Source: Pristiophorus japonicus (lineage: Eukaryota). Taken from it: DNA of 64,000 nucleotides. The position numbers were made by a program, and so were the translations under genes. Location: assembly GCF_044704955.1 (NCBI RefSeq), contig NC_091991.1, forward strand, positions 141,484,001 to 141,548,000, given 5' to 3'. Below the pieces are notes generated by a model, which saw nothing but the letters and a program-made list of their open reading frames with translations, did not search any database and was not told where the DNA came from. This document shows, one piece after another, positions 4,752 through 59,957 of the stretch; position 1 is the stretch's first letter; every line of letters begins with the position of its first letter.

Positions 4752-5075
4752 AAGTTTCATCCTCGAAGCGAGGATGACTTGCTTCCATGCCAAAAAGGGA
4801 TGAGTTCACAGGTGTTTCAATGAAGGACCAAATATTCCAGATCCCGAACTACATCGTGAAGGGTGGAAGATACCTGTGCTTGGATTTAAAAAAAATGTGT
4901 GGTGGCTGTTGCACACCAGCCACCACACGGGCTTGACAGAGCGAGGTCTTGGTCCAGTGGCAAGGATTACCCAAGACTAACGGGAGACCAGCTCTGCTGC
5001 ACAGACTGAGCGCGCACACATATCGCAGTGGTCTGGCCTGTGCTGCCCTTGGGCCCTCGCTTCTTCTGGGCCTCA
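4752..5075 (-). mobile_element. Short non-autonomous retroposon with an RTE-type 3' tail
   Basis: Minus strand ends ...gaactcatccctttttggcatggaagcaagtcatcctcgcttcgagg. Same body as 33152-33290; tail shared with the RTE LINEs. Confidence 0.7.
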
Positions 5076-6569
5076 CTGCATACCACTGCAGGGAGCAGCA
5101 TGTGCTGCTGCAGGAAGGTGACATTTAATGGATAATGAATGTGCAAATCCAACAAGTTCTTAAAAATAACGGGGAGGCTAAAGGAGAGATGCCGTTTGTG
5201 CAAAGTAAACGGTGGAGCAGCATAAATTGATTAGTAAGTTCTGGAGATTTGCACCTCAGTCCCCTAAATTTGTACTTTAATAACTCTCTGTGTTGTTAAC
5301 ATTGTCGTTATTTTTCCAGCAAGATTCGGCCCATTGTGTTGGACCATTGAATAGCTACAAAAAATCCCAAGTATATTCATTCAGAATGTTGAATTCTAAT
5401 TTCAAGTGTTCTCTCCCCACAACTCTCATGGCGACTGATAATGTAGCTGTTTTCCCAAATAAACCTTTGTGGCAGCCCACTAAAGGTGAAAACCAAGTGA
5501 ATCTTGCAGTAACATCCATCAAATCCATGAACTCTATTGTATCTGGATACTCATTTGGGTGGTGCTAAGAACACTGAGGTAGTGTTTCCACCATGTTGCA
5601 CTGTTTTTTTTTCCCAGCGCAATTCGTCCAAAATTGCCCAAACCAGAGCAAAAGCTCGAGGAATTTCAAGCGGAAGTTAGGTCCAGAGCAAATCAAGTTT
5701 CCGTGATCTTTTGTCCTTGTGTAACAAACATCGTGCTGGAATCTCGCTCAAAGCTAACCACACCCATAAATCTGACTAGGACCCCTGAATGAATTAATCA
5801 CCAAGGTGCGTTTCTGCTAATTGCGCTCGTTTGCGGCTCTTAAAATTAAGCCCCTTTTTTTTTTTAGGCGCAAGGGTACTCATAAGTTTTTAAATATTAA
5901 AAAACATTTAATTTAAGAAACTGTACATTAACGAAGCTAAGAAATGGTTCTGTATAGTTCTTTAAAGTCATTTTCAGTTATTTAAAATCATGTTGCACAC
6001 ATGTGGTGGACTATTCACGGATTAAAAATTCTTATTTTGTGAGATGAACCCATTTTCAGCTGTATTAATAGAACTGCACCAGGATACCACTCTTAAATAG
6101 TGAAACCAATATACATGGATACTCCCCAAAAAAAGAAACATCTGCAAAAAACAGACACTAGTGAGACCTAAATAACTGAAATGATAAAATATATAACAGG
6201 CACTGTAAAACCACAGACACTCGCAAATTCCAAACTATGAACAACCTTCAAATCACCCAGCCATTTTCCAAAACAAAACAGGACACTGGAATGGGGGAGC
6301 TTTTTACCCAATATACATTGCAGCAGAGAAAGTGCTTTATTTCTGGGACTGAATGCTTGGACGGCTCCATAGGGTTAGAGTGGTTTCTCTGCCGCTATAG
6401 ATGTGGAATAAAGAACTCCCCATTCTACTGAAAATATTTACAGTATACAAAATCGCCATTTTGAAAATAAGGTCTCCTGCAAATAAAGGACAACTGATGC
6501 TAGTCTCTAAGGTGTCTGTGATTTACAGGTTTCACTGTACATCAAGGAATATTTTTTAATGCAAGGGAT

Positions 6570-7084
6570 TGTGATGGAATATTTTCCACTTGCCTGGATG
6601 AGTGCAACTCCAACACTCAAAAAGCTCAACACCATCCAGGACAAAGCAGCCCGCTTGATCGGTACCCCATCCACCACCTTGAACATTCACTCCCTCCACC
6701 ACCGACGTACCGTGGCTGCAATGAGTACCATCTACAAGATGCACTGCAGCAACTCATGAAGGCTTTGTCGGCAGAACCTCCCAACCCCACAACCTCTACC
6801 ACCTAAAAGGACGAGAGCAGCAGGTGCATGGGAGGGCCATCACCTGCAAGTTCCTCTCCAAGTTACACACCATCCTGACTTGGAAATATATCGCCGTTCC
6901 TTCATTGTTGCTGTGTCAAAATCCTGGAACTCCCTCCCGAACAGCACTGTGGGTGTTCCTTCACCACAAGACCACAGCGGTTCAAGGCGGCGGCTCATCA
7001 CCACCTTCTCAAGGGCAATTAGGGATGGGCAATAAATGCTGGCCTTGCCAGCGACGCCCACATCCCAGAACGAAAGCAAAAAAA
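6570..7084 (+). mobile_element. 3' fragment of the tRNA-headed CR1-group LINE family
   Basis: MEYFPLAWMSATPTLKKLNTIQDKAARLIG followed by tail gggcaataaatgctggccttgccagcgacgcccacatccc. Same family as 32869-36638. Confidence 0.8.
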
Positions 7085-10750: not shown

Positions 10751-11035
10751 ACAGAGAGGTTCATAGCTTGCAGCAATGCAAAAGTAACAGCATAAAACTC
10801 CAGACTGAAGCCCCAACCAGATTACGGAAAGCATAAAGCCGAGAGGCGAGACATTCCTGCCAAGGGACATATTTCACAGAACTTAGGATTTGGTATTGTT
10901 CGGAATATAACTTCAGTCTGGTGTGAAGCAGATATGAAGGTGCTCTGGTCGTCTATTGGACACTATCAATTAGTATAGAGTTCTTTTAACGTTGAGATTT
11001 TTCCCTTGACCTCTCCTAATATGTATTTTTTTAAG

Positions 11036-14000: not shown

Positions 14001-15031
14001 AGGCGGTGACTAGTGGGGTACCGCAAGGTTCTGTGCTGGGGCCCCAGCTGTTTACATTGTACATTAATGATTTAGACGAGGGGATAAAATGTAGTATCTC
14101 CAAATTTGCGGATGACACTAAGTTAGGTGGCAGTGTGAGCTGCGAGGAGGATGCTATGAGGCTGCAGAGCGACTTGGATAGGTTAGGTGAGTGGGCAAAT
14201 GCATGGCAGATGAAGTATAATGTGGATAAATGTGAGGTTGTCCAATTTGGTGGTAAAAACAGAGACACAGACTATTATCTGAATGGTGACAGATTAGGAA
14301 AAGGGGAGGTGCAACAAGACCTGGGTGTCATGGTACATCAGTCATTGAAGGTTGGCATGCAGGTACAGCATGCGGTTAAGAAAGCAAATGGCATGTTGGC
14401 CTTCATAGCGAGGGGATTTGAGTACAGGGGCAGGGAGGTGTTGCTACAGTTGTACAGGGCCTTGGTGAGGCCACACCTGGAGTATTGTGTACAGTTTTGG
14501 TCTCCTAACCTGAGGAAGGACATTCTTGTTATTGAGGGAGTGCAGCGAAGGTTCACCAGACTGATTCCCGGGATGGCGGGACTGACATATTAAGAAAGAC
14601 TGAATCAACTGGGCTTGTATTCACTGGAGTTCAGAAGAATGAGAGGGGACCTTATAGAAATGTTTAAAATTCTGATGGGTTTAGACAGGTTAGATGCAGG
14701 AAGAATGTTCACAATGTTGGGGAAGTCCAGAACCAGGGGTCACAGTCTAAGGGGTAAGCCATTTAGGACCGAGATGAGGAGAAACTTCTTCACCCAGAGT
14801 GGTGAACCTGTGGAATTCTCTACCACAGAAAGTTGTTGAGGCCAATTCACTAAATATATTCAAAAAGGAGTTAGATGTAGTCCTTACTACTAAGGGGATC
14901 AAGGGGTATTTCAAGAAAGCAGGAATGGGGTACTGAAATTGCATGTTCAGCCATGAACTCATTGAATGGCAGTGCAGGCTAGAAGGGCCGAATGGCCTAC
15001 TCCTGCACCTATTTTCTATTTTCTATGTTTC
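11036..15031 (+). mobile_element. Near full-length CR1 LINE (ORF1 zinc finger + SGNH esterase; ORF2 APE endonuclease + RT), frameshifted
   Basis: ORF1 has CSSC..CRKC, GDSIVRG, HIGTND and DGLHL. ORF2 has CLNARSIRNK, GDFN, NYRPVSLTS, YLDFQKAFDKVPH, SGVPQGSVLGP and KFADD. 3' UTR ends ttttctatgtttct. Several frameshifts and a premature stop at 14591. Confidence 0.95.
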
Positions 15032-18248: not shown

Positions 18249-19071
18249 GGGCCCAAGTTTCGACTCGAGTTGATCCTATTTTTTTGGAGCCGTAATTCTC
18301 AGCATTTAGTTTACTCCAGTTCTAGTTAGTTAGAATAGCTTCGTTTTAGTACAGTTTTTTTTTCCAAAAGGGGGTGTTACCAGCGACTTATGCCCATCTA
18401 GCAAGTTTAGGCAGCGAAAAGTTACTCCAAACTAACTTAGAACGGAGTAAATGTCGATTTTTGTACGCTCAGGAAAACCTTGCCTGCACTTTAGAAATTA
18501 GGCGCAGGTAGCGAGAGATGGGGGCTGGGGGGGGGGGAAAGTTAGGGGATTTTACAAAGCATTAAACACTTCACTTTTACCAATAAAGAGCCATCAAGAA
18601 ATGATAAATAAATCAATAAATCAATCAAAAAATAAAATAAATCAATAAATAAAAAATTTTAAGTTTCTACTCACCTACTGCAGCACCGGGAGCCCTCCAA
18701 CAGCCTGCCGAAGAGCTGCTGATCGGGCGGGCCCCACCGGCAGGGAGGCGTTTGGGTGGGTCCCACTGCCGAGGAGGTAAGGGCAGTGGCGACGAGGCGA
18801 GGGACGGTGAGGCAGGCAGGCCACTTGGCCCAGGATAGGGGCGGCGAACAGTGCGAAGTCTCCTCTGCCAAGGATAGGGTCGCCCAGAGACAGGACGCGC
18901 TGGGAGGACCAAGAGCTACTGCACACACATGCAGACTCCACTGTGCACGCGCACAGCAGCTGGCACTCTTTGGCCCAGGGCTGTAGCTCCGCCCCCAGCT
19001 GCTTGTTGACTGTGAAACAAGCAGCTGGTCTCTCGGAGTGTGCCGTTCTGGGAGGACATCCGATTGGGCCC
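18249..19071 (+). mobile_element. Family A TIR element
   Basis: gggcccaa...ttgggccc termini. Left arm homologous to 24688, 37723 and 51325. Flanks tta/tat. Confidence 0.8.
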
Positions 19072-19369
19072 TATGTTACTGGTCTAATAATCCAGAGAAC
19101 ACGAGTTCAAATCTCACTATGGCAGTTTGAGGATTTGAACTCAGTTTATAAAAAAGAACTGCTAAGTGACCATAAAGCTGTTGGATTGTCTTGGGAACCA
19201 ATAGGTTCACCAATATCTTTTGGGGAACGAAACCTGCCGTTCTTACCCGGTTTGGCCAATGTGTGACTCTAGTTCCAGCGGTACAAGGCAGCCCTTCTCA
19301 AGGGCAAGTATGGATGGGCAATAAATGCAGGTCTCACCTGCGATGTACACATCTCGAGAACAAAAAAAA
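19072..19369 (+). mobile_element. tRNA-derived SINE (LF-SINE-like): head and body of the 36638 LINE joined to its 3' tail
   Basis: B box gagttcaaatctc; body gtgaccataaagctgttggattgtc; tail cttctcaagggcaa...gggcaataaatgc plus an A-run. A degenerate minus-strand copy lies near 8040-8225. Confidence 0.75.
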
Positions 19370-19869
19370 GTTACATTACGGTTATTTTGCATTAACTGAG
19401 GATCATATGAAATTGATTGTTCTTGCTATGAAATTTGCACTGTTTATTCATGTATTTTATATCAAATAAACTAGTTTGTTGGTTTGAAGTAGTTCCTCAG
19501 CGCCATACAGTCTTTTTCAGACTGCCATCCATAAAGAGGGGAGAATACAAGGACTATATTTCAGTAGAGTTTACACACGAGACACGAGTGACATGAAATG
19601 CTGATCCAGAGAATATCTAGCACAAAAATCATTAGACAATTTACTATATTTTTATACATGCATTTAATTGCTTGCCCCTCTCTTTTAAAGGTATCTTCTT
19701 TTCCTCAGCAATCGGAAGTTGGTTTATCTAATAAAATTCTGATAAAGGCTTTGAGAAGTTAGAAGAATGATAGTTGTGGTTGTGTATACAGGATTCGATT
19801 ACTTTTGAAAGTTACAAATGGCAAACATCAGCATTTTTGAGACATGTCTACTTTATCAAAAATCAGCAT

Positions 19870-22008
19870 GCAATGTCTGGACTGCAGTATGTGGGAGTTT
19901 GTGGACAGCGAAACAGTCCCGAGCAAACACATCTGCAGGAGCTATCTCCATCTCAAATCTCTCCGGCTCAGAATCATTGAGCTGGAGTGCGAGTTGGAGA
20001 CACTGACACATAAGGGAGGTGGAGGAATTTCTGGACAGTTTTATCCAGAATACAGTCACACCCCATAGGAAAGCACAGGTTTAGGAAAGGAAGGGTGTGA
20101 CTTGTTAGGGAGCCGGTTAGCAGGATTTAGGAGAGGTTGAGAAGGAGGTCCCGCAGACACTGGACCTGTCCAACATGTACGATGTGCTTGCTACCTGTGA
20201 GGACAAGGAGAAAGGCTGCAGGGAGGACAGCTACAATGCAGACTAAGGCACCGTGGCTTAGAAGGCTGTCCGAGGGGGCGGGGGCGCGGGGGGGGGACCC
20301 AGAACAGAAATGTGTCAGTGATCGGGGATTCTACAATTAGGGGGATAGAAAGCGTCCTCAGCAGCCAAGAACGAGAATCCCAAATGGTGTGCTGCCTACC
20401 CGGTGCCAGGGTAAGGAATATTTCACAGCGGCTGGAGTGGAACTTGGAAAGGGAGGGAGGGTAAATCCAATTGTTGTGGTCCATGTTGGAACTTCACGAT
20501 CTTCCTCGCTGCCCTGCTCCACCGCACACTCAACAAGCTCCCCGCTGGAGTGGAACTAAACTATAAAATCAGTGGGAACCTGTTCAACCTTCGTCGCATC
20601 CAGGCAGAATCCAAGACCGCCCCATCCTCTGTCGTCGAACTACAGTACGTGGACGACACTTGCATTTGCGCACAGAGGTTGAACTCGAAGTCATCCTCAA
20701 CATTTTCACTGAGGCGTCGAAAGCATGGGCCTTACACTAAACATCCGTAAGACAAAGGTCCTCCACCAATCTGACCCCACCACACAGCACTGCCCCCCAA
20801 TCATGAAGATCCACGGTGTGGCCCTGGACAACATGGACCACTTTCCATACCTCGGGAGCCTATCATCAGCAAGGGCAGACATAGACGACGAGGTTCAACA
20901 CCGCCTCCAGTGTGCCAGTGCAGCTTTCGGCCGCCTGTGGAAGAGAGTGTTTGAAGATCAGGCCCTCAAATCTGGCACCAAGCTTATGGGCTACAGGGCT
21001 GCACTGATACTCGCCCTCCTGTATGGTTCAGAGACGTGGACCATATACAGTAGACACCTCAAATCGCTGGAGAAATACCACCAGCGATGCCTCCACAAGA
21101 TCCTGCAAATCGCCTGGGAGGACAGATGCACCAACGTCAGTGTTCTCGATCAGGCCAACATCCCCAGCATCGAAGCACTGACCACACTTGACCAGCTCCG
21201 TTGGGCAGGCCGCATTGTTCGCATGCCCGACACGAGACTCCCAAAGCAAGCGCTCTACTCGGAACTCCTACATGGCAAACGAGCCCCAGGTGGGCAGAAG
21301 AAACATTTCAAGGACATTCTCAAAGCCTCCTTGATAAAGTGCAACATCCCCAGTGACACCTGGGAGTGCCTGGCCAAAGACCACCCTAAGTGGAAGAGCA
21401 GCATCCGGGAGGGCGCTGATCACCTAGAGCATGCAGAAAACAAGCGCAGGCAGCGGAAGGACTGCACGGCAAACCAGGCTCCCCACCCATCCTTTCCTCC
21501 AACGACTGTCTGCCCCACCTGCGACAGAGACTGTAATTCCCGTATTGGACTGTTCGGTCACCTGAGTGGAAGCACGTCTTCCTTGATTTCGAGAGACTGC
21601 CTATGATGAAGAACAACAGACAGGTCCTGCTGAAAGAGTAACAGGACTCTAAATTTAAAAGCAGGACCTTGAGGGTAATAATCTCTAGATTATTGTCCGA
21701 GCCAAGTGCATATTGGCATAGAAGCAGACAGATCAGGAGAATTAACATGTGGGTAATTGACTGGTGTGGGAAAGAGAGGTTTCCTTTTCATGGGATACTG
21801 GCACCAGGGAGTGGTTGAAGCAAATAATGTAGATGCCTTTATGGGGAGGCTAAACAAGCATGTATGAGGGGGCAGGGAATAGAGGGTTATGATGATACAT
21901 TTAGATGAGGAAAGATGGGAGGCAGCTCGAGTGGAGCATAAATGCCAGCATGGACTGGTTGGGTCGAATGGCCGGTTTGTGTGTCGTATATCCTATGTAA
22001 TCCTATGA
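19870..22008 (+). mobile_element. Degenerate CR1 (ORF1 region joined to a CR1 3' UTR) split by an RTE insertion
   Basis: CLDCSMWE and CCLPGAR ORF1 motifs. ORF1 sequence resumes after 21610. Tail atcctatgtaatcctatg. Confidence 0.75.
20495..21609 (+). mobile_element. RTE-clade LINE 3' fragment
   Basis: 293-aa ORF with LLYGSETW, LRWAGRIVRM and a C-terminal CPTCDRDC..H zinc finger. gactgcctatgatga tail. Confidence 0.9.
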
Positions 22009-23330: not shown

Positions 23331-24686
23331 TAGTCTCCTCTCTGTCTATGAAGCCTTTTGCAGGTCAAACAAAATTTATTGGAGACAATATAATGTATGC
23401 CAATTAACAGTATTTTATGGCGACAAGCGTTTTCAGTATGCCAAATGTCAGAAATGGATTCCTGCTCTAGAGTAGGGGAGGGAATGGCAAACATTCAGGA
23501 AAACAGCACCAAAGCCCACAAAGTTGTTTTGGAGTTTCTTCTTTTAAGATGATGACTAGGTTTCTATTTCAAGCAAGCATAGTCTCAGTGCTCCAGAATA
23601 CATCTTTGATCTCTATCGACAAGGAAGATCCTATCAAGCCTGAAAACTACAGGGGAATCTTGTATCAGTGGCTATTAAGTTTGCCCTTCAGATGGTCATG
23701 GCATATACTGGATCCCTTGGAGTCTTGCAGTGTCAGAAAAGAACAGACTGGATCTTGTTCCTAAGAAATGTACAGGGTAGGATGTAGATTTATACAATAT
23801 TGCAGAAGGTCATAAGGCTCAAGGGATACCCCCTTACATTGCTTTCGTTAATTATTGATAGGTTATCAACCCATTGCCTCTTCGACTCTCATGAAGCAGC
23901 CCGAAGCTACAACAAAATGTGGCCAAATCTAGAATTTTATTCAGGATATGGACTCCAGATTCATGCAAGGAGACACTTGCTGAACGATCCCTCTTCAAAG
24001 AGGAGTGAGACAAGGTCGTCCACTATCATCTATTCTACTCAATGTCTTAGGCAATAATGGCATCATAGGGGAGCCTTAGAGTGTCTGTTCTGTCACTTCT
24101 GAAAGTATTGTTGCACTTCTTTTCACAGTTGATATTGCATTATTGATGGACTCATCCAGGGATTCAACACACACTGCTCATTATCTTGAACAATAGACTA
24201 ACTAGTGGGATATGGGGGTGAGTGTAGCCAAATATGATATGAAGAGGGAATCTTAAAGGCATTGACTGATAGGTACAAGGGGCATCTAACCCCATTGTTG
24301 ATTCATGTCAGTACCTGATCAGAGTAAATGCACACAACCCTTCAAGGCCACATTGAGAAGGCATGAAGGGCACTTTGTTTTGTCTCCTTCTTAAATAAAA
24401 CCAAAGCTCCAATACACAATGAAATTGTCTCTTTTGAAACAAACAGCAGATAGGATGCATTTTCCCCACTACTGCTCTCCACTAAATTTTTGATGTACTA
24501 TATAGTTTAAAACAGAAGAAAATATAACGTGTCTTTAGATTCATAAGTAAGGGATAATAGCAGGTCACTGGGTATGTGCCTATTTCTACCACTCTTCTAA
24601 TCTTACATATTGTTTAGACCTCTTCAGGATACATGAGAACTGGTTGATGTCGAGATACATCTCCTCCACAGCTCAGTCAGAATTAT

Positions 24687-25970
24687 AGGGTCAAGTTTCG
24701 GCCTGAGTTGTTCCTATTTTTTTGGAGCAACTAGTTTAGAATGGAGTATCTTAGAAATTGCAATTCTCAGCATTTAGTTTGCTCCAGTTCGAGTGAGTTA
24801 GAACAGTTTCATTTTAGAACAGACTTTTTTTTCCAAAAGGGGGCGTGCCCGGCCACTTACACCCGTTTTGCAAGTTTAGGCAGCGAAAACTTACTCCAAA
24901 CTAACTTAGAATGGAGTAAATGTAGATTTTTGTATGCTCAAAAAAACCTTGCCTACACTTAGAAAATCAGGTGTAAGGAAGAGAGAGATTGGGGTGAGCG
25001 AAGTTTACATACATGAAACACATCACTTTTAAAAATAAAGAGCCATCAATAATAAATTATAAATAAATCAAAAAAAAATTAAAAAATTAAAAAATAAAAA
25101 AAAAAATTAAATTTCTACTCACCGACTGCAACACCGGGAGCCCTCCAACAGCGTGCTGGGACGGGGCCCCCCCCAGTGTGTGTCTCTCTGACTGTCTCTA
25201 TTTCTGACAATGAGAGGAGGGGGGGAGAAGGGAGGGGAGAGCGCGCGCGCGCAAAGAGAGGGGAGAGCGGAGAGGGAGGGAGAGAGGAGAGAGAGAGGGA
25301 GAGGGGGTAGAGGGGGGAGGCTGAATGGGTCCGGCCGACAAGAAGAAGCCGGGCCGAAGACTTTGGGTGGGGCCTGCCCCCAGCAAGATGCCGGGAGGGC
25401 AGGCCCCGCCGAAGACGTGGAGGGGTAACGAACCGGACCCTGAAGAGGGGAGGGGGGGGGGGGGGTGGGGGAAAGAGGGGAGCCGGAGCGGAGCAGGAGC
25501 TGCGGGGGGGTTGGGAGCGGCGTGCAGCAGAGCGGGAGCTGAACAGGGGGACGGGCGAGCGGTGTGGGGAGAGCCAGACCGGGAGCAGGAAGCGAGGGGG
25601 GGGGTGGGGTGCCGGAGCCGTAGCAGGACCTCGAGGAGGGAGGTGCAGTCCAGTCTTCACCACCCCAGTGAGCCCATTCGGCCAGGGCTGGGGACTGTGC
25701 GCTTCGGGCCCCTCCCACACAGTATTGGGCACCTGGAGCTACTGCACATGCACGCACACTGTAGCGCGCATGTGCTGAGGTCCTGGCACTGTTTTCAATG
25801 CCGGGACCTGTCTCCGCCCCCCACAGCTTGTGCTGCGCTGCGCCAAGGGCCCGGATCGACCTGAGAGAGGGGAGAATACTAAGATAAGTTTTCAGCATGG
25901 TTTTGAGCGCAGAAATCAGGCGTGGCTCGCGGGGCTGCGCCGTTCTAGGCATGGGCCGAAACTTGACCCC
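24687..25970 (+). mobile_element. Family A TIR element, complete
   Basis: TIR gggtcaagtttcggcc / ggccgaaacttgaccc. tat flanks. G-rich central tract. Confidence 0.85.
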
Positions 25971-31819: not shown

Positions 31820-32475
31820 AAAGGCGCTGAGCACCTAGAGTCTGGTTGCCGAGAGCATGCAGAAAACAAGCACAGGTAGCGGAAGGAGCGGCGGCAAATC
31901 AGTCCCACCCACTCTTTCCTTCAACGACTGTCTGTCCCACCCGTGATGGACTGTAATTCCCATATTGGACTGTTCGGTCACCTAAGAACTCACTTCTTGA
32001 GTGGAAGCAAGTCTTCCTCGATTTCGAGCGACTGCCTATGATGATGATGATTCATAATGGAAATGCAAATTTGCTTAGGGATTCATAATCCCTAAACAAA
32101 TGCTTTATGTGGAGCTCCTTCATGGTAAACGAGCCAAAGGAGGACAGCGGAAACATTATAGGGACACCCTCAAAGCCTCGCTGGTAAATTCCGACGTCAC
32201 CACTGACACCTGGGATACCCTGGCCGCAAACCACCCGAGGTGGAGAAAGTCCCTCCGGGAAGACGTTGAGCTCTTCGAGTCTCAGCACAAAGAGCATGGA
32301 GAGGCCAAGCGCAGAAGAAGCGTGCGGCAAACCAGCCCCACTGACCTCTTCTCTCGACGAATGTCTGTCCCACCCGTAACAGGGTCTGTGGCTCTTGTAT
32401 CAGACTGTTCAGCCATCAAAGAACTCACTTTGGGAGTGGAAGCAAGTCCTCCTCGATTCCGAGGGACATTGATTA
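31820..32475 (+). mobile_element. Two adjacent RTE 3' end fragments
   Basis: Two copies of the gtggaagcaagtc...cctcgatt tail. The first ends in (atg)n at about 32050. LYVELLHGKRAKGGQRK. Confidence 0.85.
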
Positions 32476-32815: not shown

Positions 32816-33151
32816 TTAAAAAAATCGTTGATACTAACAGATCTTGTTGTTAGATTTAGGATTTGCCATTTTCTTTTATTCATTCATGGGATGTGGGTGT
32901 CGCTGGCAAGGCCAGCATTTATTGTTCATCCCCAATTGCCCTTGAGAAGTGGTGAGCCGCAGTCTTGATGTAGTCCATGTGGTGAAGGTACTCCCACCGT
33001 GCTGTCAGGGAGAGAGTTCCAGAATTTTGACCCAGCGACGAAGAAGGAACGATGATATATTTCCAAGCCAGGATGGTGTATAACTTAGATGGGAATTTGC
33101 AGGCAATTGTGTTCCCATGTGCCTGCTGCCCTTGTCCTTCGAGGTGGTAGA

Positions 33152-33290
33152 TCTTTCCGGGCCGGGCCACTGCATGTTGCTCCCTCTAATGGAATATTAG
33201 GTCCTTCATTGAAACACCTGTGAACTCATCCCTTTTTGGCGTGGGATCAAGTCATCTTCGTTTTGAGGGACTGCCTATGATGATGATGAT
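33152..33290 (+). mobile_element. RTE-tailed short retroposon inserted in the LINE
   Basis: gagggactgcctatgatgatgatgat tail. TSD gaggtggta at 33141 and 33291. Confidence 0.8.
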
Positions 33291-35329
33291 GAGGTGGTAA
33301 AAGTCACAGGTTTGGGAGGTGCTGCAGTGCATCTTTGGTATACTGCAGCCATGGTGTGCCAGTGATGGAGGGACTGAATGTTTAAGACAGTGGATGAGGT
33401 GCCAATCAAGTGGGCTGCTTTGTCCTGGATGGTGTCGAGCTTCTTGAGCATTGTTGGAACTGTACTCATCCAAGCATGTGGAGAGTATGCCAGCACATGC
33501 CTGGTTGTGCCATGTACATGGTAGAAGTAAGGAGGTGCGGCACTCGCTGCATAATATCCAGCCTCTGACCTGCTCTTGTTGCCACAGTATTTATGCGGTT
33601 GGGCCAGTTAAGTTTCTGGTCAATGGTTACCCTCAGAATGTTAATGGTAGGAGATTCAGTTATAATGAATGTCAAGGGGCGGTGGTTAGACTCTTGCCAC
33701 TTATCAGCCCAAGCCTGAATGCCACACAGGTCTTGCTGCATGCAGGCATGGACTGCGCCATTATCTGAGGAGTTATGAATGGAATTGAACACTGTGCAAT
33801 CAGCAGCAAACACCCCCACTTCTGACCTTATGATGGAGGGAATGTCACTGATGAAGCAGCTGAAGGCTAGAACATTACCCTGAGGAACTCCTGTAGCAAT
33901 GTCCTGGGACTGAGACGATCGGCCTCCTACAGCCACAACCATCTTTACTTTGTGCTCAGTATGACTCCAGCCAGTGGAGAGTTTTCCTCCTGATCCCCAT
34001 TGACTTCAGTTTTACAAGGGCTCCTTGATGCCACTCTTGGTGAAATGCTGCCTTGATGTCAAGGGCAGTGACTCTCACCTCACCCCTGGAACTCAGCTCT
34101 TTTGTTCATGTTTGGACCAATGAGGTCTGGTACCAAATGTTCCTGGCGGAACCGAAACTGAGCATCAGGGAAAAGGTTGTTGGTGAGTAAGTGCCGCCTG
34201 ATAGCACTGTCGATTATACTTCCATCACTTTGCTGATGATTGAGAGTAGACAGATGGGGCGGTAATTGGCCAGATTGGATTGGTCCTGCTTTTTGTGGAC
34301 AGGTCATACCTGGGCAGTTTTCCCACATTGTCAGGTAGATGCCAGTATTGTGGTGTATCTGGAACGGCTTGGCTAGAGGAGCGGCTAGTTCTGGAGCACA
34401 AGTCTTCAGCACAACAGCCGGGATACTGTCAGGGCCCATAGCCTTTGCTGTATCCAGTGGGCTCAGCCATTTCTTGATATCACGTGGAGTGAATTAAATT
34501 GGCTGAAGTCTGACTTCTGTAATGGTAGGGACATCAAGAGAAGTCTGATATGGATCATCCACTCGGCACTTCTGGCTGAAGATAGTTGCAAACATTTGAG
34601 TCTTGTCTTTTGCACTTGTGTGCTGGGCTCTGCCACCATTGGGGATGAAGCCTCCTCCTCCCGTTAGTCACTTAATTGACCACCATCATTCACGACTGGA
34701 TGTGGCAGGACTGCAGAGCTTTAATCTGATCCGTTGATTGTGGGATCGCTTAGCTCTGTCTATAGTATGCTGCTTCCAATGTTTAGCATGCATGTAGTCC
34801 AGTGTTGCCGCTTCCCCAAGTTGGCACCTCATTTTTAGGTAACCAGGTGCTGCTCCTGGCATGCTCTTCTGCACACATTGATCTCTGGCTTGATGGTAAT
34901 GGTAGAGTAAGGAATATGCCAGGCCACGAAGTTACAGATTTTGGTGCAATACATTTCTGCTGCTGTTGATGGTCCGTAGCACATCATGGATGCCCAGTCT
35001 TAAGCTTCTAGATCGGTTCTGAATTTATCCCACTTAGCACGGTGCCACACAACACGATGAAGAGTGTCCTCAGTGTAAAGATGGGACTTGGTCTCCACAA
35101 AGACTGTGTGGTGGTCACTGCTACAAGGGGGTCATGGACAGATGCAACTACAATAGGTAGATTGGTGAGGACGAGGTCAAGTATATTTCTTCCTTGTGTT
35201 GGTTCTCTCAACACCTGCTGAAGGCCCATGGCCCAGCCATGTCCTTCAGGACTCAGCCAGTTTGGTTAGTAGTGGTGATAGCGAGCCACTTTTGGTGATG
35301 GACACTGAAGACCCCCACCCAGAGTACAT

Positions 35330-35843
35330 TAAAGATTTGAGTACAAAAGTAAAGATGTCTTACTGCAATTATATCGAGCCCTTGCGAGACAGCACCTGGA
35401 GTATTGTGTACAGTTTTGGTCTCCTTAACTAAGGAAAGATATTGAGGGAGTTCAATGAAGGTTCACCAGACTGAACATATAAAATTATTACAAAGCTTGA
35501 CAGGGTTGATGCAGGGAGGATGTTTCCTCTGGCTGAGGTGTCTAGAACCAGGGGTCACAGTCGTAGAATAAGGGGTCAGCCATTTAGGACTGAGATGAGG
35601 AGAAACTTCTTCACTCAGAGGGTGGTGAATCTTTGGCATTCTATACCCCAGAGGGCTGTGGAGGCTCAGTCTTCGAGTATATTCAAGCAGAAATCGATAA
35701 ATTTTTGGATATTAAGGGAATCAAGGGATATGGGGATAGTGCAGGAAAGCGTCGAGGTAGAAGATCAGCCATGATCTCATTGAATGGCGGAGCAGGCTCG
35801 AGGGGCCAAATGGCCTACTTCTGCTCCTAATTCTTGTTCTTAT
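35330..35843 (+). mobile_element. CR1 3' fragment inserted in the LINE
   Basis: RTRGHSRRIRGQPFRTEMRRNFFTQRVVNLW plus 3' UTR. TSD gtacat at 35324 and 35844. Confidence 0.88.
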
Positions 35844-37722
35844 GTACATCCTGTGCCCTTGCTACCCTCAGTGCTTCTTCCAAGTGGTGTTCAATATGGA
35901 GGAGTCCTGATTCATCAGCTAAGAGAAGGCAGTAGGTGGTAATCAGTTGCAGGTTTCCTTGCCTATGTTTGACTCCATGAGACTTCATGGGGTCCGTAGT
36001 CAATGTTGAGGACTCCTAGGGCCACTCCCTCCCGACTGTAAACCATGCGCTGCCACCTCTGGCGGATCTGTCTTGCTGGTGGATCAGGACATACCCAGGG
36101 ATGTAATGGATGGGTCTGAGACATTGGCTGATTCATGAATCTGAGAGTATGACTATGTCAGGCTGTTGCTTGACAAGTCTGTGGGACAGCTCTCCCAATT
36201 TTGGCACAAGTCCCCAAATGTTAGTGAGGAGAACTCTGCAGGGTTGACTAGGCTGGGGTGCCGTTTTCATGTTCGAAGCTGGTGCCTAGGTAGATGGTGG
36301 GTGGTCCATCGGTTTTATTGTTCTTATTGCTTTTTGTAGCGGTTTATTACAACTGAGTGGCTTGCTCGGCCATTTCAGAGGGCAGTTAACCACATTGCTG
36401 TCGGTCTGGAGTCACATATAGGATAGACCAGGTAAGGATGGCAGGTATCCTTCCTTAAAAGACATTAGTGAATCAGATGGGTTTTTACGACAATCCGATA
36501 GTTTCACGGTCATCATTACTGATGTTAGCTTTTTATTCCAAATGTATTTAACTGCATTTAAATTCCCCAGCTGCCATGGTGGGATTTGAACTCACGTCTC
36601 CAGATTACTAGCAACATAACCACTACGCTACCATTCCCTATGTGTCCCTTATTCATTAATGAGGGATACATGCTAAAAAAAACTCCAGGTCTGTGAACAT
36701 GTTAACAAAAAAATAATCACAAATTTTAAGGGCCACGTAGCTAGAGCTCAGGTCTTATTTTGGACATCTCAGTCAGGATGACAGAAATATGAAGCCATAA
36801 CTTAAAACGCATTGCTGGTATTCTTCAAGCAACTTTATTCAGCTATGAATCTGCCAGTGCAAGAAGCAAAACAATTCTCACTGTACATCAGGAGGGAGGA
36901 TAATAGCTATTCTATGAAGTGAAATAAGTGCGACCTGGCAACATTCTTTCCCAACTAACACCATCAATAATAAATTAACTAGTTATTTATGTAATTTGCT
37001 GTTTGTGGGACATTGCTGTGTACGAATTTGGCTGCTACATTTGCTCATATAATAGTAATAAATGTACTTCAAAAGTTTGGTTGTGAAGTGCTTTAGTACA
37101 TTCTGAAGACATCAAAGATAGTCCATAAATCAAGTTCTTTCTTTTTGGCACTAAATTGACAATCTCACTCATGGGGGCATCAAAATGCAGCAAGTAGGAA
37201 AATAAGTCGTGTTTGTGTAAGATTGTGCTGAGGTAGAGTAGATGCAACAGTATTCTGCCTTTGATCGTGTTACACCTGATCCAGAATCCTAAAACTGGGA
37301 AATGGAAAAAGATTCCATTTCCCAGCACTAACATCTTTCAGTTTGACGGTCACAAGATACATCAAAAAAACTAAATGGAGTGCATTGTAGGGCTATAATA
37401 CATTAAAGCTATTCCAAACCAACCTCACAAAACATACACATATAGTGCATGTCCTGTGCTCTTTTAGTTGCATTCCAACGCTAAACCCATTTGCTCCTAA
37501 AGACACATGATTCTGGCTTCATTTGGTTTTTAATACTGAACCTAAACACGCACCGTGCTTATAAGTGATCTGATAAGTCCTCCACCAGGAGCGCCTTTCT
37601 GCAAATTATTCTCTGTTTAATATATTTTTTTCAGACTTCTTGTATTCGAGCTAGTACCATCAAAGCAATCGTCATGTTCGAGAAGCTCTGTAAAACCTTT
37701 CAATCCAAAGTGTCCACTTATC

Positions 37723-38964
37723 GGGCCCAAGTTTCCACATGATTTGCGCCTGATTTTTAGGAGCAACTGGTGGAGAACGGACTATCTTAGAAATCGCAAT
37801 TCTCCACATTTTTTTTTCTACAGTTCTAGTCAGGTAGAACAGTTCTACTTTGGAACAGAATTTTTTCTTCAAAAGGGGGCGTGTCCGGTCACTGACGCCT
37901 GATTTGAAAGTTTCCACAGTGAAAACGTACTCCAAACTAAAGTAGAATGGAGCCAGTGAAGATTTTTGTAGAACTGAAAAAACCTGTTCTACACATTAAA
38001 AAATCAGGCGCAGGTTACAAATTAGGTGTTCAGAACGAGGTGGGGGGGGGGGGGAAGGGAACTCATTAAATCCTTATTTATAATTCTACAAATAAATAAA
38101 TCCAACCTGAATAAACATTTATAAGCCAAGAAAAGATTAAATAAACCATCTTCTACCTGTGTGAAAGTGCTTCAGCCAGGGAGAATTCTGCAGCCGTTCG
38201 TGCCGCTGAGCGGGGGGGGGGGGGGGGGGGCAGAAAGCAGTTCGTGTCGCTGAGCGGGGTGGGGNNNNNNNNNNNNNNNNNNNNNNNNNNNNNNNNNNNN
38301 NNNNNNNNNNNNNNNNNNNNNNNNNNNNNNNNNNNNNNNNNNNNNNNNNNNNNNNNNNNNNNNNNNNNNNNNNNNNNNNNNNNNNNNNNNNNNNNNNNNN
38401 NNNNNNNNNNNNNNNNNNNNNNNNNNNNNNNNNNNNNNNNNNNNNNNNNNNNNNNNNNNNNNNNNNNNNNNNNNNNNNNNNNNNNNNNNNNNNNNNNNNN
38501 NNNGATCCAGTCCGGGAGCGGGAGTAGGGTCCAGTGGGGGGGCGGGAGCGAGGGTCGGGTTGGGTCCATTCGGGGAGGGCAGGGAGCGGGAACAGGAGCG
38601 CGGGTCGGGTCAGTCGGGGGGCGGGGGCGGGGGCAGGAGCTGGCCGTGGGAGGAGCCTTATTCACGCAGTCCCAGTGAGGCCATTCAGCCAGGGCTAGGG
38701 GCTGCGTGCTTTGGGCCCCTCCCCACACAGTTCGGCGCCTGGAGCTACTGCACTTGCATGCCCACTGTAGGGCGCATGTGCAGAGGTCCCGGCACTGTTT
38801 TCAGTGCAGGGACCTGGCTCCGCCCCCCCACAGCTCGTGCTGGCTGCGCCGAGGGCCAAAGTACCTGTAAGTAGGTGGAGAATACCGAGGATTTTTTTAG
38901 GCGCGAAAAACGGGCGCCCAGCTTGGAGGGGCGCCCGTTTTTTTTCTTGTGGAAACTTGGATCC
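37723..38964 (+). mobile_element. Family A TIR element containing an assembly gap
   Basis: TIR gggcccaagtttccac / gtggaaacttggatcc with an exact atc TSD. Confidence 0.85.
38265..38503. other. Assembly gap (239 N) in a G-rich tract
   Basis: Run of N. Confidence 1.
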
Positions 38965-39462: not shown

Positions 39463-40697
39463 GAGGATGTAACAAACAGGGTGGATAAAAGGGAACCAGT
39501 GGATGTGGTTTATTTGGACTTCCAGAAGGCATTTGACAAGGTGCCACATAAAAGGTTACTGCACAAGGTAAAAGTTCACAGGGTTGGGGGTAATATATTA
39601 GCATGGATAGAGGATTGGCTAACTAACAGAAAACAGAGAGTCGGGATAAATGGTTCATACTCTGGTTGGCAACCAGTAACTAGTGGGTGCCGCAGGGATA
39701 AGTGCTGGGACCCCAGTTATTTACAATCTATATTAACAACTTGGAAGAAGGGACGGAGTGTAACGTAGCCAAGTTTGCTGACGATACAAAGGTGGGAGGA
39801 AAAGCAATGTGTGAGGAGGACACAAAAAATCTGCAAAAGGACATAGACAGGCTAAGTGAGTGGGCAAAAATTTGGCAGATGGAGTATAATGTTGGAAAGT
39901 GTGAGGTCATGCATTTTGGCAGAAAAAAAAAATCAAAAATAAGCTATTATTTAAATGGAGAACGATTGCAAAGTGCCGCAGTACAGCGGGACCTGGGGGT
40001 ACTTGTGCATGAAACACAAAAGGATGGTATGCAGGTACAGCAAGTGATCAGGAAGGCCAATGGTATCTTGACCTTTATTGCAAAGGGGATGGAGTATGAA
40101 AGCAGGGAAGTCTTGCTACAGCTATATAAGGTATTGGTGAGACCACACCTGAAATACTGAGTGCAGTTTTGCTTTCCATTTTTACGAAAGGATATACTTG
40201 CTTTGGAGGCAGTTCAGAGAAGGTTCACTCGGTTGATTCCGGGGATGAGGGGGTTGACTTATGAGGAAAGGTTGAGTAGGTTGGGCCTCTACTCATTGCA
40301 ATTCAGAAGAATGAGAGGTGATCTTATCGAAACGTATAAGATTATGAGGGGGCTTGACAAGGTGGATGCAGAGAGGATGTTTCCACTGATGGGGGGAGAG
40401 GAAAACTAGAGGGCATGATCTTAGAATAAGGGGCCGCCCATTTAAAACAGAGATGAGGAGAAATTTCTTCTGAGGGTAGTAAATCTGTGGAATTCGCTGC
40501 CTCAGAGAGTTGTGGAAGCTGGGACATTGAATAAATTTAAGACAGAAATAGACAGTTTCTTAAACGATTAGGGAATAAGGGGTTATGGGGAGCGGGCGGG
40601 GAAGTGGAGCTGAGTCCATGATCAGCCATGATCTTATTGAATGGCGGAGCAGGCTCGAGAGGCCGGATGGCCTACTCCTATTTCTTATGTTCTTATG
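39463..40697 (+). mobile_element. 5'-truncated CR1 abutting a CLEC16A splice acceptor
   Basis: VDVVYLDFQKAFDKVPH and KFADD motifs. 3' tail ttcttatgttcttatg. Closely similar to 48740-49974. Confidence 0.93.
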
Positions 40698-47434: not shown

Positions 47435-49974
47435 CGGAATTGAATGTTGGTCGGAGTATAAACCAGGGGGCTTGTAAAAAGGGAACAACAATAATCATGG
47501 GTGATTTTAATCTCCATATTGATTGGACAAATCAAATTGAACAGGGTAGCCTTGAGGAAGAGTTCATAGAGTGCATAAGGGACAGGCTCCTTCAGCAATA
47601 TGTAATGGAACCAACCAGGGAGCAGGCTCCCTTAGATCTGGTCCTGTGTAATGAGACAGGATTAATAAACAATCTCCTAGTAAAAGGATCCCCTTGGAAT
47701 GAGTGATCATAGCATGGTTGAATTTCAAATTCAGATGACGGGTGAGAAAGTTGGATCTCAAACAAGTGCACTAAGCTTAAATAAAGGAGACTACAAAAGT
47801 ATGAGGGCAGAGTTGGCTAAAGTGGACTGGGAAAATAGATTAAAGTGTAGGATGGTTCATGAACAGTGGCGTACATTTAAGGAGATATTTCACAACTCTC
47901 AAGAAAAATATATTCCAGTGAGGAGGAAAGGGTGTAAAAGCAAAGATAGCCATCTGTGGCTAACTAAAGAAATAAAGGATGGTATCCAATTAAAAACAAG
48001 GACATACAAAGTGGCCAAAACTAGTGGGAGGACAGAAGATTGGGAAGCTTTTAAAAGCCAGCAAAGAATGACTAAAAAAATTATTAAGAAAGGGAAGATT
48101 GACTATGAAAGGAATATAAAAACAGATAGCAAGAGTTTCTATAAGTATATAAAAAGGAAAAAAAAAAAAAAAAAAGAGTGGCAAAAGTAAATGTTGGCCC
48201 CTTAGAGGACGAGACCGGAGAATTAGTAATGGGGAACATGGAGATGACAGAAACTCTGAACAAATATTTTGTATCAGTCTTTACGGTAGAGGACACTAAA
48301 AATAACCCAACAGTGGATGGGGGGGGAAGAGAAAGGAGAGGAACTTAACACAATCACAATCACTAAGGAGGTGGTACTCAGTAAGATAATAGGACTAAAG
48401 GCAGATAAATCCCCTGGACCTGATGGCTTGCATCCGAGGGTCTTGAGAAGTAGCGGCAGGGATAGTGGATGCATTGGTTGTAATTCACCAAAATTCCCTG
48501 CATTCTGGGGAGGTCCCTGCAGATTGGAAAACTGAAAATGTAACACCCCTATTTAAAAAAGGAGGCAGACAAAAAGCAGGAAACTATAGACCAGTCAGCC
48601 TAACATCTGTGGTTGGGAAAATGTTGGAGTCCATCAAAGAAGCAGTAGCAGGACATTTGGAAAAACAAAATTCAGTCAGGCAGAGTCAGCATGGACTTAT
48701 GAAAGGGATGTTATGTTTGACAAATTTGCTGCAATTCTTTGAAGATGTAACGAACAGGGTGGATAAAGGGGAACCAGTGGATGTGGTTGTACTTGGACTT
48801 CCAGAAGGCATTTGACAAGGTGCCACATAAAAGGTTACTGCACAAGATAAAAGTTCACGGGGTTGGGGGCAATATATTAGCATGGATAGAGGATTGGCTA
48901 ACTAACAGAAAACAGAGTATCGGGATAAATGGTTCATTCTTGGGTTGGCGATCAGTAATTATTGGGGTGCCGCAGGGATCAGTACTTGGACCCCAGCTAT
49001 TTACAATCTATATTAATGACTTGGAAAAAGGGACCGAGTGTAACGCAGCCAAGTTTGCTGACAATACAAAGATGGGAGGAAAAGCAGTGTGTGAGGACAC
49101 AAAAAATCTGCAAAAGGAAACAAACAGGCTAAGTGAATGGGAAAAAATTTGGCAGATGGAGTACAATGTTGGAAAGTGTGAGGTTATGCACTTTGGCAGA
49201 AAAAAAAAAATCAAGGAGCAAGTTATTATTTAATTGGAGAAAATTTGCAAAAGTGCTGCAGTACAGCGGGACCTGGGGGTCCTGGTGCATGAAACACAAA
49301 AGGTTAGTATGCAGGTACAAGTGATCAGGAAGGTCAATGGAATCTTGGCCAGTATTGCAAAGGGGATGGAGTATAAAAGCAGGGAAGTCTTACTACAGTT
49401 ACACAGGATATTGGTGAGGCCACACCTGGAATACTGCATGCAGTTTTGGTTTCCATATTTAAGAAAGGATATACTTGCTTTGGAGGCAGTTCAGAGAAGG
49501 TTCACTGGGCTGATTCCGGAGATGAGGGGATTGACTTATGAGGAATGGTTGAGTAGGTTGGGCCTCTACTCACTGGAATTCAGAAGAATGAGAGATGACC
49601 TTACCAAAACGTATAAGATTGAGGGGGCTTGACAAGATGGATACAGAGAGGATGTTTTCACTGATAGGGGAGACTAGAACTAGGGGGCATAATCTTAGAA
49701 TAAGGGGACGGCCATTTAAAACTGAGATGAGGAGAAATTCTTCTGAGGGTTGTAAATCTGTGGAACTCGCTGCCATCAGAGAGCTGTGGAAGCTGGGTCA
49801 TTGAATAAATTTAAGACAGAGATAGACAGTTTCTGAACCGATAAGGGAATAAGGGGTTATGGGGAGCGAGCGGGGAAGTGGACCCGAGTCCATGATCAGA
49901 TCAGCCATGATCGTATTAAATGGCGGAGCATGCTCGAGGGGCCGGATGGCCTACTCCTGGCTCCTATTTCTTAT
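47435..49974 (+). mobile_element. 5'-truncated CR1 ORF2 (APE end + RT) with 3' UTR
   Basis: GDFNLHIDW, SDH, NYRPVSLTS, GVPQGSVLGP and KFADN motifs. Many frameshifts. Confidence 0.93.
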
Positions 49975-51324
49975 TAAACTGGGCCAGACAGATACCCAAA
50001 AAACTCCCCATTGAAGAATGAGGTGAGTTGTCTGGGACAGAAATGTCAATTAAAAACCATGCAACTAAAGTAGAATTTGACCTACAGTCGCTGTAAATCA
50101 GTGGCTCTCATAATACATTGGGCGATACATGGTGCAACAATCCACTGGTATAAAACAGCATATCCTCCGACTTACTATAAGCAATGCCATGGGCGATCTG
50201 CTCATTCCATATTGTACAATGAATACTACACTATGAAATTACCAGGCTAATTTAGGATGCTTCTAAACCCACAAAATAAATTCTAGCCATTCCAGTCAGT
50301 TAACCCCAAGATTGAAGTACAGCCTCCAACTCTGCAGGGACATGTATACTCATGTCATACAATCCATTCATTTCTGATCTTTAACAAAAAACATTTTTTT
50401 TTTTAAAAAGTAACACACCACCATTGGTATGTGCATCACTGGAGATTAAGCAGATTAATGAAAATGGAAGCAGTGCTGCAAGGGTGTTCACAAAAATTTC
50501 CAACAGCAGCTGGAATATCCATAAAACACCACCATTTCCATCACGTGCAAATAGAGGGCGTTTTTAAAAAGATGAGAAACAGCTAATGGGGAATTGCGGA
50601 TAGTTGGGGTGAATTCTCCACTTCGATGCCATCCCACATTCCATTTAAACAAACAAAGCAACCCGCATATTTCTACAGATGATTCGCCAACCACCTATGT
50701 AGAATGTATGCACACTTATTTTCATCTATAAATAATTTAATGTTTGGCTCTTTATTAAGATTACTCGATCACATATGAGGAAGCTCTTGATTATGAGCAA
50801 CAATAAACTGTGATTTAAAATTCAATAGAACATCTGACTTTCAAGGTAAAAAATTGTAAATTCGTGAGCTAGAATTCACAGAAGATTTTTGCTAGATACA
50901 ATTCTCAGAAATACAGACCAGATAACCTCTCATCGACATGAACATGAGATTTAAACGGGAAAGGATTTTAATCATGTCCAATGATCAGATTCCCGGATTT
51001 GCAAGTTTGACAGTCTTCAAAACAATGTCTGAAATTATAATGAAAATCCCAAATACAATCAAGTGACTGTTTACAGTTAACTGCAAAAAGTAAAAAGGGG
51101 GAGATGGTGCAATATTACAAGTAGAATTCATTTGTTCCACAGTAGATGCCTCTTGTAATACATCACTGAATGCCGAATACTGGGTTATAGCCACAATTGT
51201 TCATGTGGTCAGTTACCAATCTCAGTTTTAACTTTCTGGAGCAGCACTTCTCTAATAGGCAAGGAGCGATAATTGATGGGGAAGTCTTGGGTATTGCTCA
51301 CTTAACTCCAAGTAACCAGTCTTA

Positions 51325-52517
51325 GGGCCCAAGTTTCCACATGATTTACGCCTGATTTTTAGGAGCAACTGGTGGAGAACGGACTATCTTAGAAATCACA
51401 ATTGTCCACATTTTTTTTTCTGCAGTTCTAGTCAGGTAGAACAGTTCTACTTTGGAACAGAATTTTTTCTTCAAAAGGGGGCGTGTCCGGCCACTGACGC
51501 CCGATTTCAAAGTTTCCACAGTGAAAACGTACTCCAAACTAAGTTAGAATGGAGCAAGAGAAGATTTTTGTAGAACTGAAAAAACCTGTTCTACACATTA
51601 AAAAATCAGGCGCAGGTTACAAATTAGGCATCCAGAACGAGGTGGGGGGGGGGGGGAAGGGAAGTCATTAAATTCTACAATAAATCCTTATTTATACTTC
51701 TACAAATATTATACAAATAAATCCAACCTGAATAAAAATTTATAAGCAAAGAAAAGATTAAATAAACCATCTTCCTACCTGTGTGAAAGTGCTTCAGCCA
51801 GCCTCAAGTTCGTTCGTTCCCGACGGCGGGGAGGGGGGGGGGGGGGGAGGAGGAAGCCGTTCCCGACGGCGGGCGGGCGGGAGGGAGTGAGTGCGGGACC
51901 GACCAACCGCCTGCCCGCAGCGGGGGGGGGGGGGGGGGGAGGAAGCCGTTGCAGACGGCGGGCGGGAGGGAGGGAGTGCGGGCCCGACCGACCGCCCGCC
52001 CGCAGTGGGAGGGGGGTGGGAGGAAGACGTACCAGACGGCGGGCAGGCGGAAGTGCGGGCCCGATCGACCGAACGCAGCGGGGGGGGGGGGGGGGGGGGG
52101 GGAGGAAGCCGTTCCAGACGGCGGGCGGGAAGGAGACAGTGAGAAGGCTGTAGGAAGCTTCAGTGCTGATGGCAATGTGCTTTTATTAAAAAACGTTCAA
52201 AAATTTAACAGCTACAAAGAACTACAAAAATGGCCGAGTGCCAATGTTTCCTTCACACTGCGCGTGCGCGAACGCTCCAACGCGCACGCGCAGGGTTGCC
52301 GGCAGGAAAAAAACTAATTTAAATGGTACCCGCCCCCTCCCACTTACAAAATCGGCGCAAGTGTAGGCTCCGCCCCCCTGGGCGCCGTGCCAAACAGACA
52401 AGGAGCTGCAGGGCTCTCCAGAATCGCGAGTTTTTTTTCCGGCGCCATTTTAGGCACGAAAAACAGGCGCCCAGCTCGGAGGGGCGCCCGTTTTTTATCG
52501 TGTGGAAACTTGGGCCC
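51325..52517 (+). mobile_element. Family A TIR element with an internal G-rich minisatellite
   Basis: Perfect 17-bp TIR gggcccaagtttccaca / tgtggaaacttgggccc. Flanks tta/ata. Left arm nearly identical to that of 37723. Confidence 0.9.
51820..52130. repeat. G-rich tandem repeat (about 85-bp unit, 3-4 copies)
   Basis: Repeated ggaggaagccgtt..gacggcgggc..gtgcggg..cgacc..gcagcg(G)n. Confidence 0.85.
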
Positions 52518-59626: not shown

Positions 59627-59957
59627 CTATCAAAAATAAATTGATATTATGAATCAGTTTGTAAAATAAAATCAAAAAATCCTGTAAATTCTCAAATGCC
59701 AGGTAAAACAACCAGTTGTCCACAACCTGTGCATAGCAACAAAGAGACTTTTTCCACACTACTGCCATGGTTTGACATAAAATGACATTTAAATTCAAAA
59801 CTACAATTAAGTCCATAAATGACTCTTTGGTTAACAAGTTGTAGGACATCCCTGCGTCTACTGTTTAAACAAAGGTGACAACCTATTTAAAATAAATAGC
59901 TGAGCATCTAATTTTCAGGTCAGAAGATTGTCATGTGTTCTTACATGCATTTATTCA

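Follow-up and report, generated by a model that had tools for sequence, protein, structure and literature searches.

We analysed a 64,000-nucleotide (nt) stretch of the Pristiophorus japonicus genome (contig NC_091991.1, positions 141,484,001 to 141,548,000 of the forward strand; hereafter the window) and found that its minus strand carries, at 32869..36638, a decayed copy of an abundant 3.3-kb long interspersed nuclear element (LINE) family with just one open reading frame (ORF). In this family a transfer RNA (tRNA)-type head, a leader, a 973-codon frame encoding an APE endonuclease and a reverse transcriptase (RT), and an A-tail travel as one 3.3-kb unit. By sequence match, the family is the elasmobranch Zenon LINE of Stuart et al. 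2026 (PMC13343379). Neither the element nor the absence of ORF1 from it is new; the novelty lies in the reading of its 5′ end. We put at roughly 0.65 the probability that this is a Zenon LINE whose fixed, tRNA-derived 5′ end, with A and B boxes, makes it a likely template for RNA polymerase III (hereafter Pol III).

The copy in the window, and the related pieces found with it, are laid out as follows.

36571..36638, minus strand: tRNA-derived head at the sharp 5′ end common to the family, weakly matched by the Rfam tRNA model in two copies and the same in five published shark and ray consensus sequences.
36620..36630, minus strand: Pol III A box, TAGCGTAGTGG, read in the sequence; the exact motif stands in 22 of 43 decayed copies.
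36583..36591, minus strand: Pol III B box, GTTCAAATC, read in the sequence; the exact motif stands in 46 of 71 decayed copies.
36342..36494, minus strand: conserved leader block, a candidate translation-initiation element, near-invariant by eye across the five published consensus sequences.
36350..36388, minus strand: hairpin with a 7-nt anticodon-like loop at 36368-36362, from a helix list and pair tallies over 113 copies; its function is putative.
36371..36373, minus strand: in-frame ATG, GTG in an older lineage; in this copy TAA comes after it, at 36349-36347.
36340-36338, minus strand: in-frame GCT, read in the sequence, a possible partner of the hairpin loop.
36268..36270, minus strand: an ATG earlier taken as the start codon, a CpG-decay artefact by codon tallies over copies.
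32935..36346, minus strand: single ORF, its 973 codons open in the family majority, with an Arg-rich leader, APE from ~36240 and RT at ~34450-33620.
35331..35843, plus strand: 3′ piece of a CR1, nested in the element and bearing a 7-bp target-site duplication (duplicated columns 848-854), like CR1 3′ ends elsewhere in the window.
33152..33293, plus strand: 3′ end of a different retroposon, also nested and closed by a (GAT)n tail, matching 4761-4839, 31979-32051 and 3561-3606.
32869..32934, minus strand: 3′ untranslated region with AATAAA at 32923-32918 and an A-rich tail; T-runs occur there in a third of the family's copies.
19072..19370, plus strand: older derivative of the same family, resembling a short interspersed nuclear element (SINE), with head, leader and tail only.
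6566..7074, plus strand: 3′ fragment of a family member truncated on its 5′ side, with a 90% match to majority columns 2802-3315.

A previous, sequence-only reading of the window had proposed a LINE that runs from a tRNA-type head straight into its endonuclease, lacks ORF1 and is nearly free of Pol III terminators. The head does begin at 36638, its A and B boxes were verified in the sequence at 36630-36620 and 36591-36583, and the APE, RT and tail lie downstream with the two nested inserts, as described. About 26 nt between the boxes are deleted in this copy, and its ORF is interrupted by stops and frameshifts; Pfam Exo_endo_phos_2 and RVT_1 were matched on natural copies of the family. Both nested inserts, of which the (GAT)n-tailed one is presumably RTE-like, are missing from other family copies. 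With the inserts removed, the remaining 3116 nt hold three T4 runs, no T5 and 18 A4 runs on the sense strand, so the earlier T counts stand and its figure of about 16 A4 was low. Two of the three T4 runs were examined; both are copy-specific decay and absent from the column majority. A search of the window for tRNA genes with ARAGORN found none, and a lone 56-nt tail fragment of the family lies at 8047-8102.

The joint between head and endonuclease is a property of the family. In a genome search with window positions 36000-36640, 40 matches were scored out of 12,320 first-look candidates, and all 40 (39 besides the copy itself) span the joint. This family-wide junction, together with the published consensus sequences, rules out a chance SINE adjoining a truncated LINE. 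A second sample of 38 distinct copies was found by RT, which avoids selection by the head/APE query; 11 of these extend to the leader, five to the head, and the remainder are truncated. No other common sequence stands upstream of the truncations among these 38, and none reaches an ORF1. The claim that the family lacks ORF1 thus held up: no copy runs into one, and none has an alternative 5′ end.

Seventy-eight stretches give a column majority of 3316 nt, which starts sharply at GGGAACGG and contains one open frame of 973 codons that begins 330 nt from the 5′ end, with its first Met at residue 287. Copies diverge from this majority by a mean of 6.2% at non-CpG sites (3.4-9.0%, the lower figure being that of the least diverged copy) and by 25% at CpG sites. 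Variants shared by many copies divide into 25 synonymous and 19 nonsynonymous (omega ~0.27), against 1049 and 3529 among rare variants (omega ~1.19; difference p=1.5e-6). The ORF of the source elements was under purifying selection; with the rare variants neutral, the source elements therefore made a working protein. Junction, majority ORF, selection and published consensus sequences together support a LINE that was autonomous, with one ORF, a tRNA head throughout the family and no ORF1. No intact young copy was found among 150 scored RT matches, where the longest open frame is 620 codons, and the family therefore appears extinct in this genome. Target-site duplications were not evident in 14 near-full-length copies.

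Tree-like subfamilies were not found among the copies. Some 60 high-frequency non-CpG variant sites (copies L031-L168) are almost unlinked beyond 10 nt, with a mean r2 of ~0.04-0.07, suggesting that the source RNAs of LINEs recombine heavily in this genome. Shark CR1 variants, from fewer copies, are likewise scrambled, if less so (r2 ~0.12), and the scrambling is not specific to this family. Pieces of the ORF also occur in predicted shark proteins (storkhead-box 1-like, anoctamin-7-like, FERM domain 7-like and others), probably as gene-model artefacts.

Stuart et al. 2026 (PMC13343379) describe Zenon elements from five elasmobranchs (SquAca_Zenon-1 and the CarCar, RhiTyp, ScyCan and HypSab elements), all with a poly(A) tail and without ORF1, a lack described there for all Zenon elements. 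We compared the published consensus sequences by eye over the first 400 letters of each. Over that length SquAca_Zenon-1 is nearly identical to our family letter for letter, and its total length is 3314 nt versus 3316. A 15-nt leader motif matches six published consensus rows, all of them Zenon. The tRNA-like head opens the consensus sequences of all five elasmobranch species, with A and B boxes kept and the stretch between them variable; hagfish and coelacanth Zenon 5′ ends show no such head over the same span and have T-runs early. The words ‘tRNA’ and ‘promoter’ are absent from the main text of that paper. The head appears to have gone unremarked: we found no description of it on elasmobranch Zenon in the literature searched, a search outside whose scope lie Repbase and subscription papers that may bear on novelty.

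The family shares with Zenon, which belongs to the CR1 group, a single APE-RT ORF without ORF1, a poly(A) tail and the match to a named elasmobranch consensus. Canonical vertebrate CR1 elements are marked by an esterase ORF1 or close kinship to esterase-bearing CR1, and this family has no ORF1. The identity of its RT to shark CR1 is 31%, and to the best intact relatives found, shark fragments aside, 43-47%. In a 25-row RT tree that contains no named Zenon protein, its neighbours are a protein of the whale shark (100/100) and relatives, and shark CR1 stands far off. For the CR1 at 11036 a weak GDSL match was obtained, and its RT is distant from that of the family.

As in a type 2 Pol III unit, A and B boxes stand at the 5′ end, the interior has no T4 and few T clusters, and a T-run, which may be target DNA, lies at a third of the 3′ ends. 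With the Rfam tRNA model, two copies gave faint head matches (E 0.51 and 8.2) that fall short of the gathering score, and five whole loci gave none. A second hairpin after the anticodon arm of the family head (window 36571-36638 and copy L124) resembles a duplicated arm; other species keep a hairpin at that place with different letters.

The coding strand is poor in T-tracts. Head and ORF of the family majority are free of T4, and its T3 runs number 8 where composition predicts 20; natural copies, tallied over 252,029 aligned bases, carry 0.35 T4 per kb and 4.85 A4 per kb. As controls we used 21 LINE ORF2 frames (six from shark CR1 copies and 15 from metagenome loci, the ones among 42 whose RT frame reaches 600 codons or more), all of which have at least 1.87 T4 per kb versus 0 in the family ORF. 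The CR1 at 11036, which the sequence-only reading credited with many sense T4 runs, does have such runs, but only seven, two of them T5, in 3985 nt. Pol III also stops at interrupted T tracts (PMC3141230, PMC8466645), and TCTTT and TATTT are known terminators (PMC8466645). Clusters with four T in five positions number 1 in the family, versus 5.8 expected under synonymous shuffles (p=0.009), 10.0 under mononucleotide shuffles and 8.0 +/- 2.6 under dinucleotide shuffles of the whole element (0 of 150 shuffles). The same clusters of A, C or G show no depletion. The ratio to expectation is 0.17 in the family and 0.73-1.14 in 17 of the controls, namely all 15 metagenome loci plus two of the six CR1 copies.

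At the 3′ end, a T-run of at least four occurs at 29 of 88 family ends versus 8 of 93 flank windows, ~45 nt downstream of AATAAA, and the 88 ends are mostly A-tailed. By analogy, this layout is that of polyadenylated Pol III SINEs.

Several points weigh against Pol III transcription and terminator purging. T4 alone is not significant (0 versus 1.9 in synonymous shuffles, p=0.11; dinucleotide p=0.12), because the ORF is already T-poor, with 18 Phe and 3 TTT; purging is thus borne out once weak terminators are counted and fails for T4 against codon shuffles. The four-in-five measure was picked post hoc, after earlier shuffle results, and five-in-seven T clusters are not significant under synonymous shuffles (p=0.14). 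Shark CR1 is itself mildly poor in T clusters (0.73-0.75 of expectation, p ~0.03). The family figure comes from a majority sequence and the control figures from single natural copies, and the control set contains no GC-rich headless Zenons. A search for an older long subfamily gave mostly main-family copies, leaving T-tract avoidance with no independent replicate. The 3′ T-run could be target DNA. Sequencing contigs of other organisms from four runs (two DNA-type, two guessed to be RNA) cover all 30 bins of the element, and neither start, end, strand nor polymerase can be read from them.

If the 5′ end works as its boxes suggest, TFIIIC would bind them and Pol III would read 3.3 kb, terminators having been selected out, and would stop at the 3′ T-run, inside the element or just downstream. 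The AAUAAA ~45 nt upstream of that run may permit polyadenylation, as in mammalian B2-type SINEs. The resulting RNA would be uncapped, and the conserved leader would direct its translation to an unconventional start, most likely on a non-AUG codon shortly past 36349.

An RNA polymerase II (Pol II) LINE that captured a SINE head, with the boxes as passengers or Pol II aids and the T-poverty due to codon bias or avoidance of U-rich processing signals, is an unlikely explanation. It accommodates T4 counts inside the shuffle range, a sense strand of 19.7% T with C-ending codons favoured, and the fact that known single-ORF Zenons function without a Pol III promoter (PMC6740152). It fits poorly with a cluster depletion that exceeds codon usage and dinucleotides and affects T alone, with three AATAAA within the first 370 nt, signals to which Pol II ought to respond, and with boxes that persist in five species. 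Far less probable still, and already largely refuted, is the view that template switching between an abundant SINE and a headless master LINE produced the long head-bearing copies as chimeras. Head-plus-tail forms are as frequent as long ones (13 versus 13 of 29 leader-selected loci), and the scrambled variants (r2 ~0.04-0.07 beyond 10 nt) point to frequent recombination, yet shark CR1 is scrambled too, less so. The junction is identical in every long copy, whereas the short forms have their own breakpoints; no copy has an alternative 5′ end, an older lineage also has a long head-bearing copy (L291), and the same arrangement recurs in the consensus sequences of five species.

The ATG at 36270, proposed as the start, does not serve the family: of 60 copies, 22 read ACG at this triplet, 18 read ATG and 12 read ACA, a CpG-decay pattern, and it lies out of the APE frame, coming into frame in the window copy solely through a 1-nt deletion at 36258. 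We found no conserved AUG start for the ORF. The in-frame ATG at 36373 is preceded by seven others. Among 100 main-lineage copies, TAG follows it in 44 and TAA stands six codons later in 55; GTG takes its place in 9 of 13 copies of the older lineage, and the TAG occurs in the published consensus sequences of all five species. The frame from GCT 36340 into APE is intact by eye in four of five published sequences and off by one in SquAca_Zenon-1; a 3-nt deletion common to copies in the leader leaves the frame intact. From these stops, the GTG and the kept GCT-to-APE frame, it follows that translation most likely began without AUG shortly past 36349.

A start at AUG/GUG 36373, compatible with Pol III transcription, is possible, though we do not favour it. 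Here only open haplotypes would be autonomous, and stop-bearing copies would be copied in trans or read through. The codon lies in the APE frame in strong Kozak context. A minority haplotype open from it has 11 exact genome matches, most such copies read into APE, and both stop sites are open in 12 of the 67 copies that were classed. Both stops are usually followed by CAA, which we take to be a leaky context. Against it stand the TAG in five species and the older-lineage GTG, a whale-shark consensus that keeps the GCT-to-APE frame and loses that from 36373 (by eye), and open copies that are not clearly younger (0.066 versus 0.071).

For the preferred non-AUG start, the leader block 36342..36494 is the candidate element; its majority has 6 non-CpG differences from the older lineage. 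The columns for 36388-36350 form a two-part stem with a 7-nt loop whose commonest allele, CUAGCAA, has what we take to be the form of an anticodon loop. In the main lineage, 11 of the 12 stem pairs are kept by 66-97% of copies; the remaining pair reads A-C there, G-C in the older lineage and A-U in the ray consensus. The loop AGC could pair with the in-frame GCU nine bases past the stem, giving 3-4 pairs, possible in both lineages.

These features raise the idea of a dicistrovirus-like internal ribosome entry site (IRES), in which a leader pseudoknot whose loop mimics a tRNA-Ala anticodon, paired to the in-frame GCU, would load ribosomes without AUG onto a 3.3-kb Pol III mRNA. We regard it as doubtful. 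Type 6 IRESs use an anticodon:codon mimic and start at non-AUG codons (PMC12221177), and a review raises them as a possibility for LINEs (PMC3894237). The second base of the loop is variable, which counts against an IRES; Rfam IRES families gave no match on two leaders at E up to 10, and the PKII/PKIII and conserved loops of type 6 were not seen in the leader. The leader block folds no better than shuffles (z -0.67), and of 62 predicted pairs in its consensus structure only 3 have any double change, with an unfavourable covariation term.

Short deletion forms accompany the long element. Among 29 leader-selected loci, 13 run into the ORF, 13 join leader to tail, each at a private breakpoint, and 3 do neither; the contigs described above also contain joints that skip from leader end to tail. 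An older lineage of head-plus-tail forms exists and includes window 19072-19370, alongside the long copy L291. These derivatives are non-coding and non-autonomous, as SINEs are, while the full family has an ORF under purifying selection. Any copy that retains head and tail would be a ready-made SINE, which we propose explains the many deletion forms with private breakpoints.

Other repeats lie elsewhere in the window. A young canonical CR1 at 10979-15020 has a weak esterase-type ORF1 match, and many of its genome copies are open for ~1000 codons; a second CR1 family (39463-40696, 47466-49975, 59955-60772) is ~66-73% identical to it. Fragments of another LINE family with (GAT)n ends, presumably RTE-like, lie at 1-714, 2491-3604, 20492-21609 and 31823-32467. 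Another repeat, which joins an AT-rich end to tandem units rich in GC and in G-runs, occurs at 18291-18708, 24683-25970, 37718-38905 and 51325-52180, its units measuring 81-89 nt at 51833-52173. A stretch of 239 N lies at 38265-38503.

SINEs are defined as Pol III-transcribed and non-coding and LINEs as Pol II-transcribed and coding, a line that a Pol III Zenon would cross. Pol III ordinarily yields non-coding RNA alone. If so, it would provide a natural 3.3-kb Pol III RNA that is translated and a direct LINE-to-SINE route by simple deletion. An IRES, were that reading right, would make this a vertebrate retrotransposon that bypasses both Pol II and the cap, and a cellular-genome example of the dicistrovirus type; the 160-nt leader is defined ground for testing the origin of factor-free IRESs. 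In a different clade, Ingi, protein-coding LINEs that start with a tRNA-derived Pol III promoter were reportedly described by Kojima et al. in 2011. The SINEs B2, Dip and Ves carry a tRNA-type head. They share AATAAA, terminator and A-tail with the 3′ end studied here (PMC8466645) but are short and non-coding, whereas the shark Zenon is 3.3 kb with a selected ORF and has the T-run in only a third of copies.

The type 6 dicistrovirus intergenic IRES (PMC12221177) resembles the leader in its ~150-190 nt before a frame without conserved AUG and in the possible anticodon-loop:codon pairing, GCU and ACA being common first codons of the type; it differs in that the shark leader lacks an Rfam IRES match, PKII/PKIII and the conserved loops, and offers only 3-4 pairs. 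The shark SINEs SacSINE1 (Deu), HE1 (V) and CmiSINEs (CORE) likewise combine tRNA heads with LINE-type tails in cartilaginous fish. A Deu, Meta or UCON3 body, considered as a lead for the SINE-like part, was ruled out by eye: the domains as aligned in print (PMC7245038 supplement 1) bear no resemblance to the Zenon leader. With the published elasmobranch Zenon (PMC13343379) the family shares 5′ end, length, single ORF and poly(A) tail; the head, the T-tract depletion and the start-codon problem are undescribed in that paper’s main text. Lepidopteran Zenon and its deletion derivative Persaeus (PMC6740152) share the single ORF, the poly(A) tail and short, internally deleted forms. Persaeus, as described there, keeps a Zenon 5′ end with no tRNA homology and no Pol III promoter, whereas the shark derivatives are SINE-like by construction.

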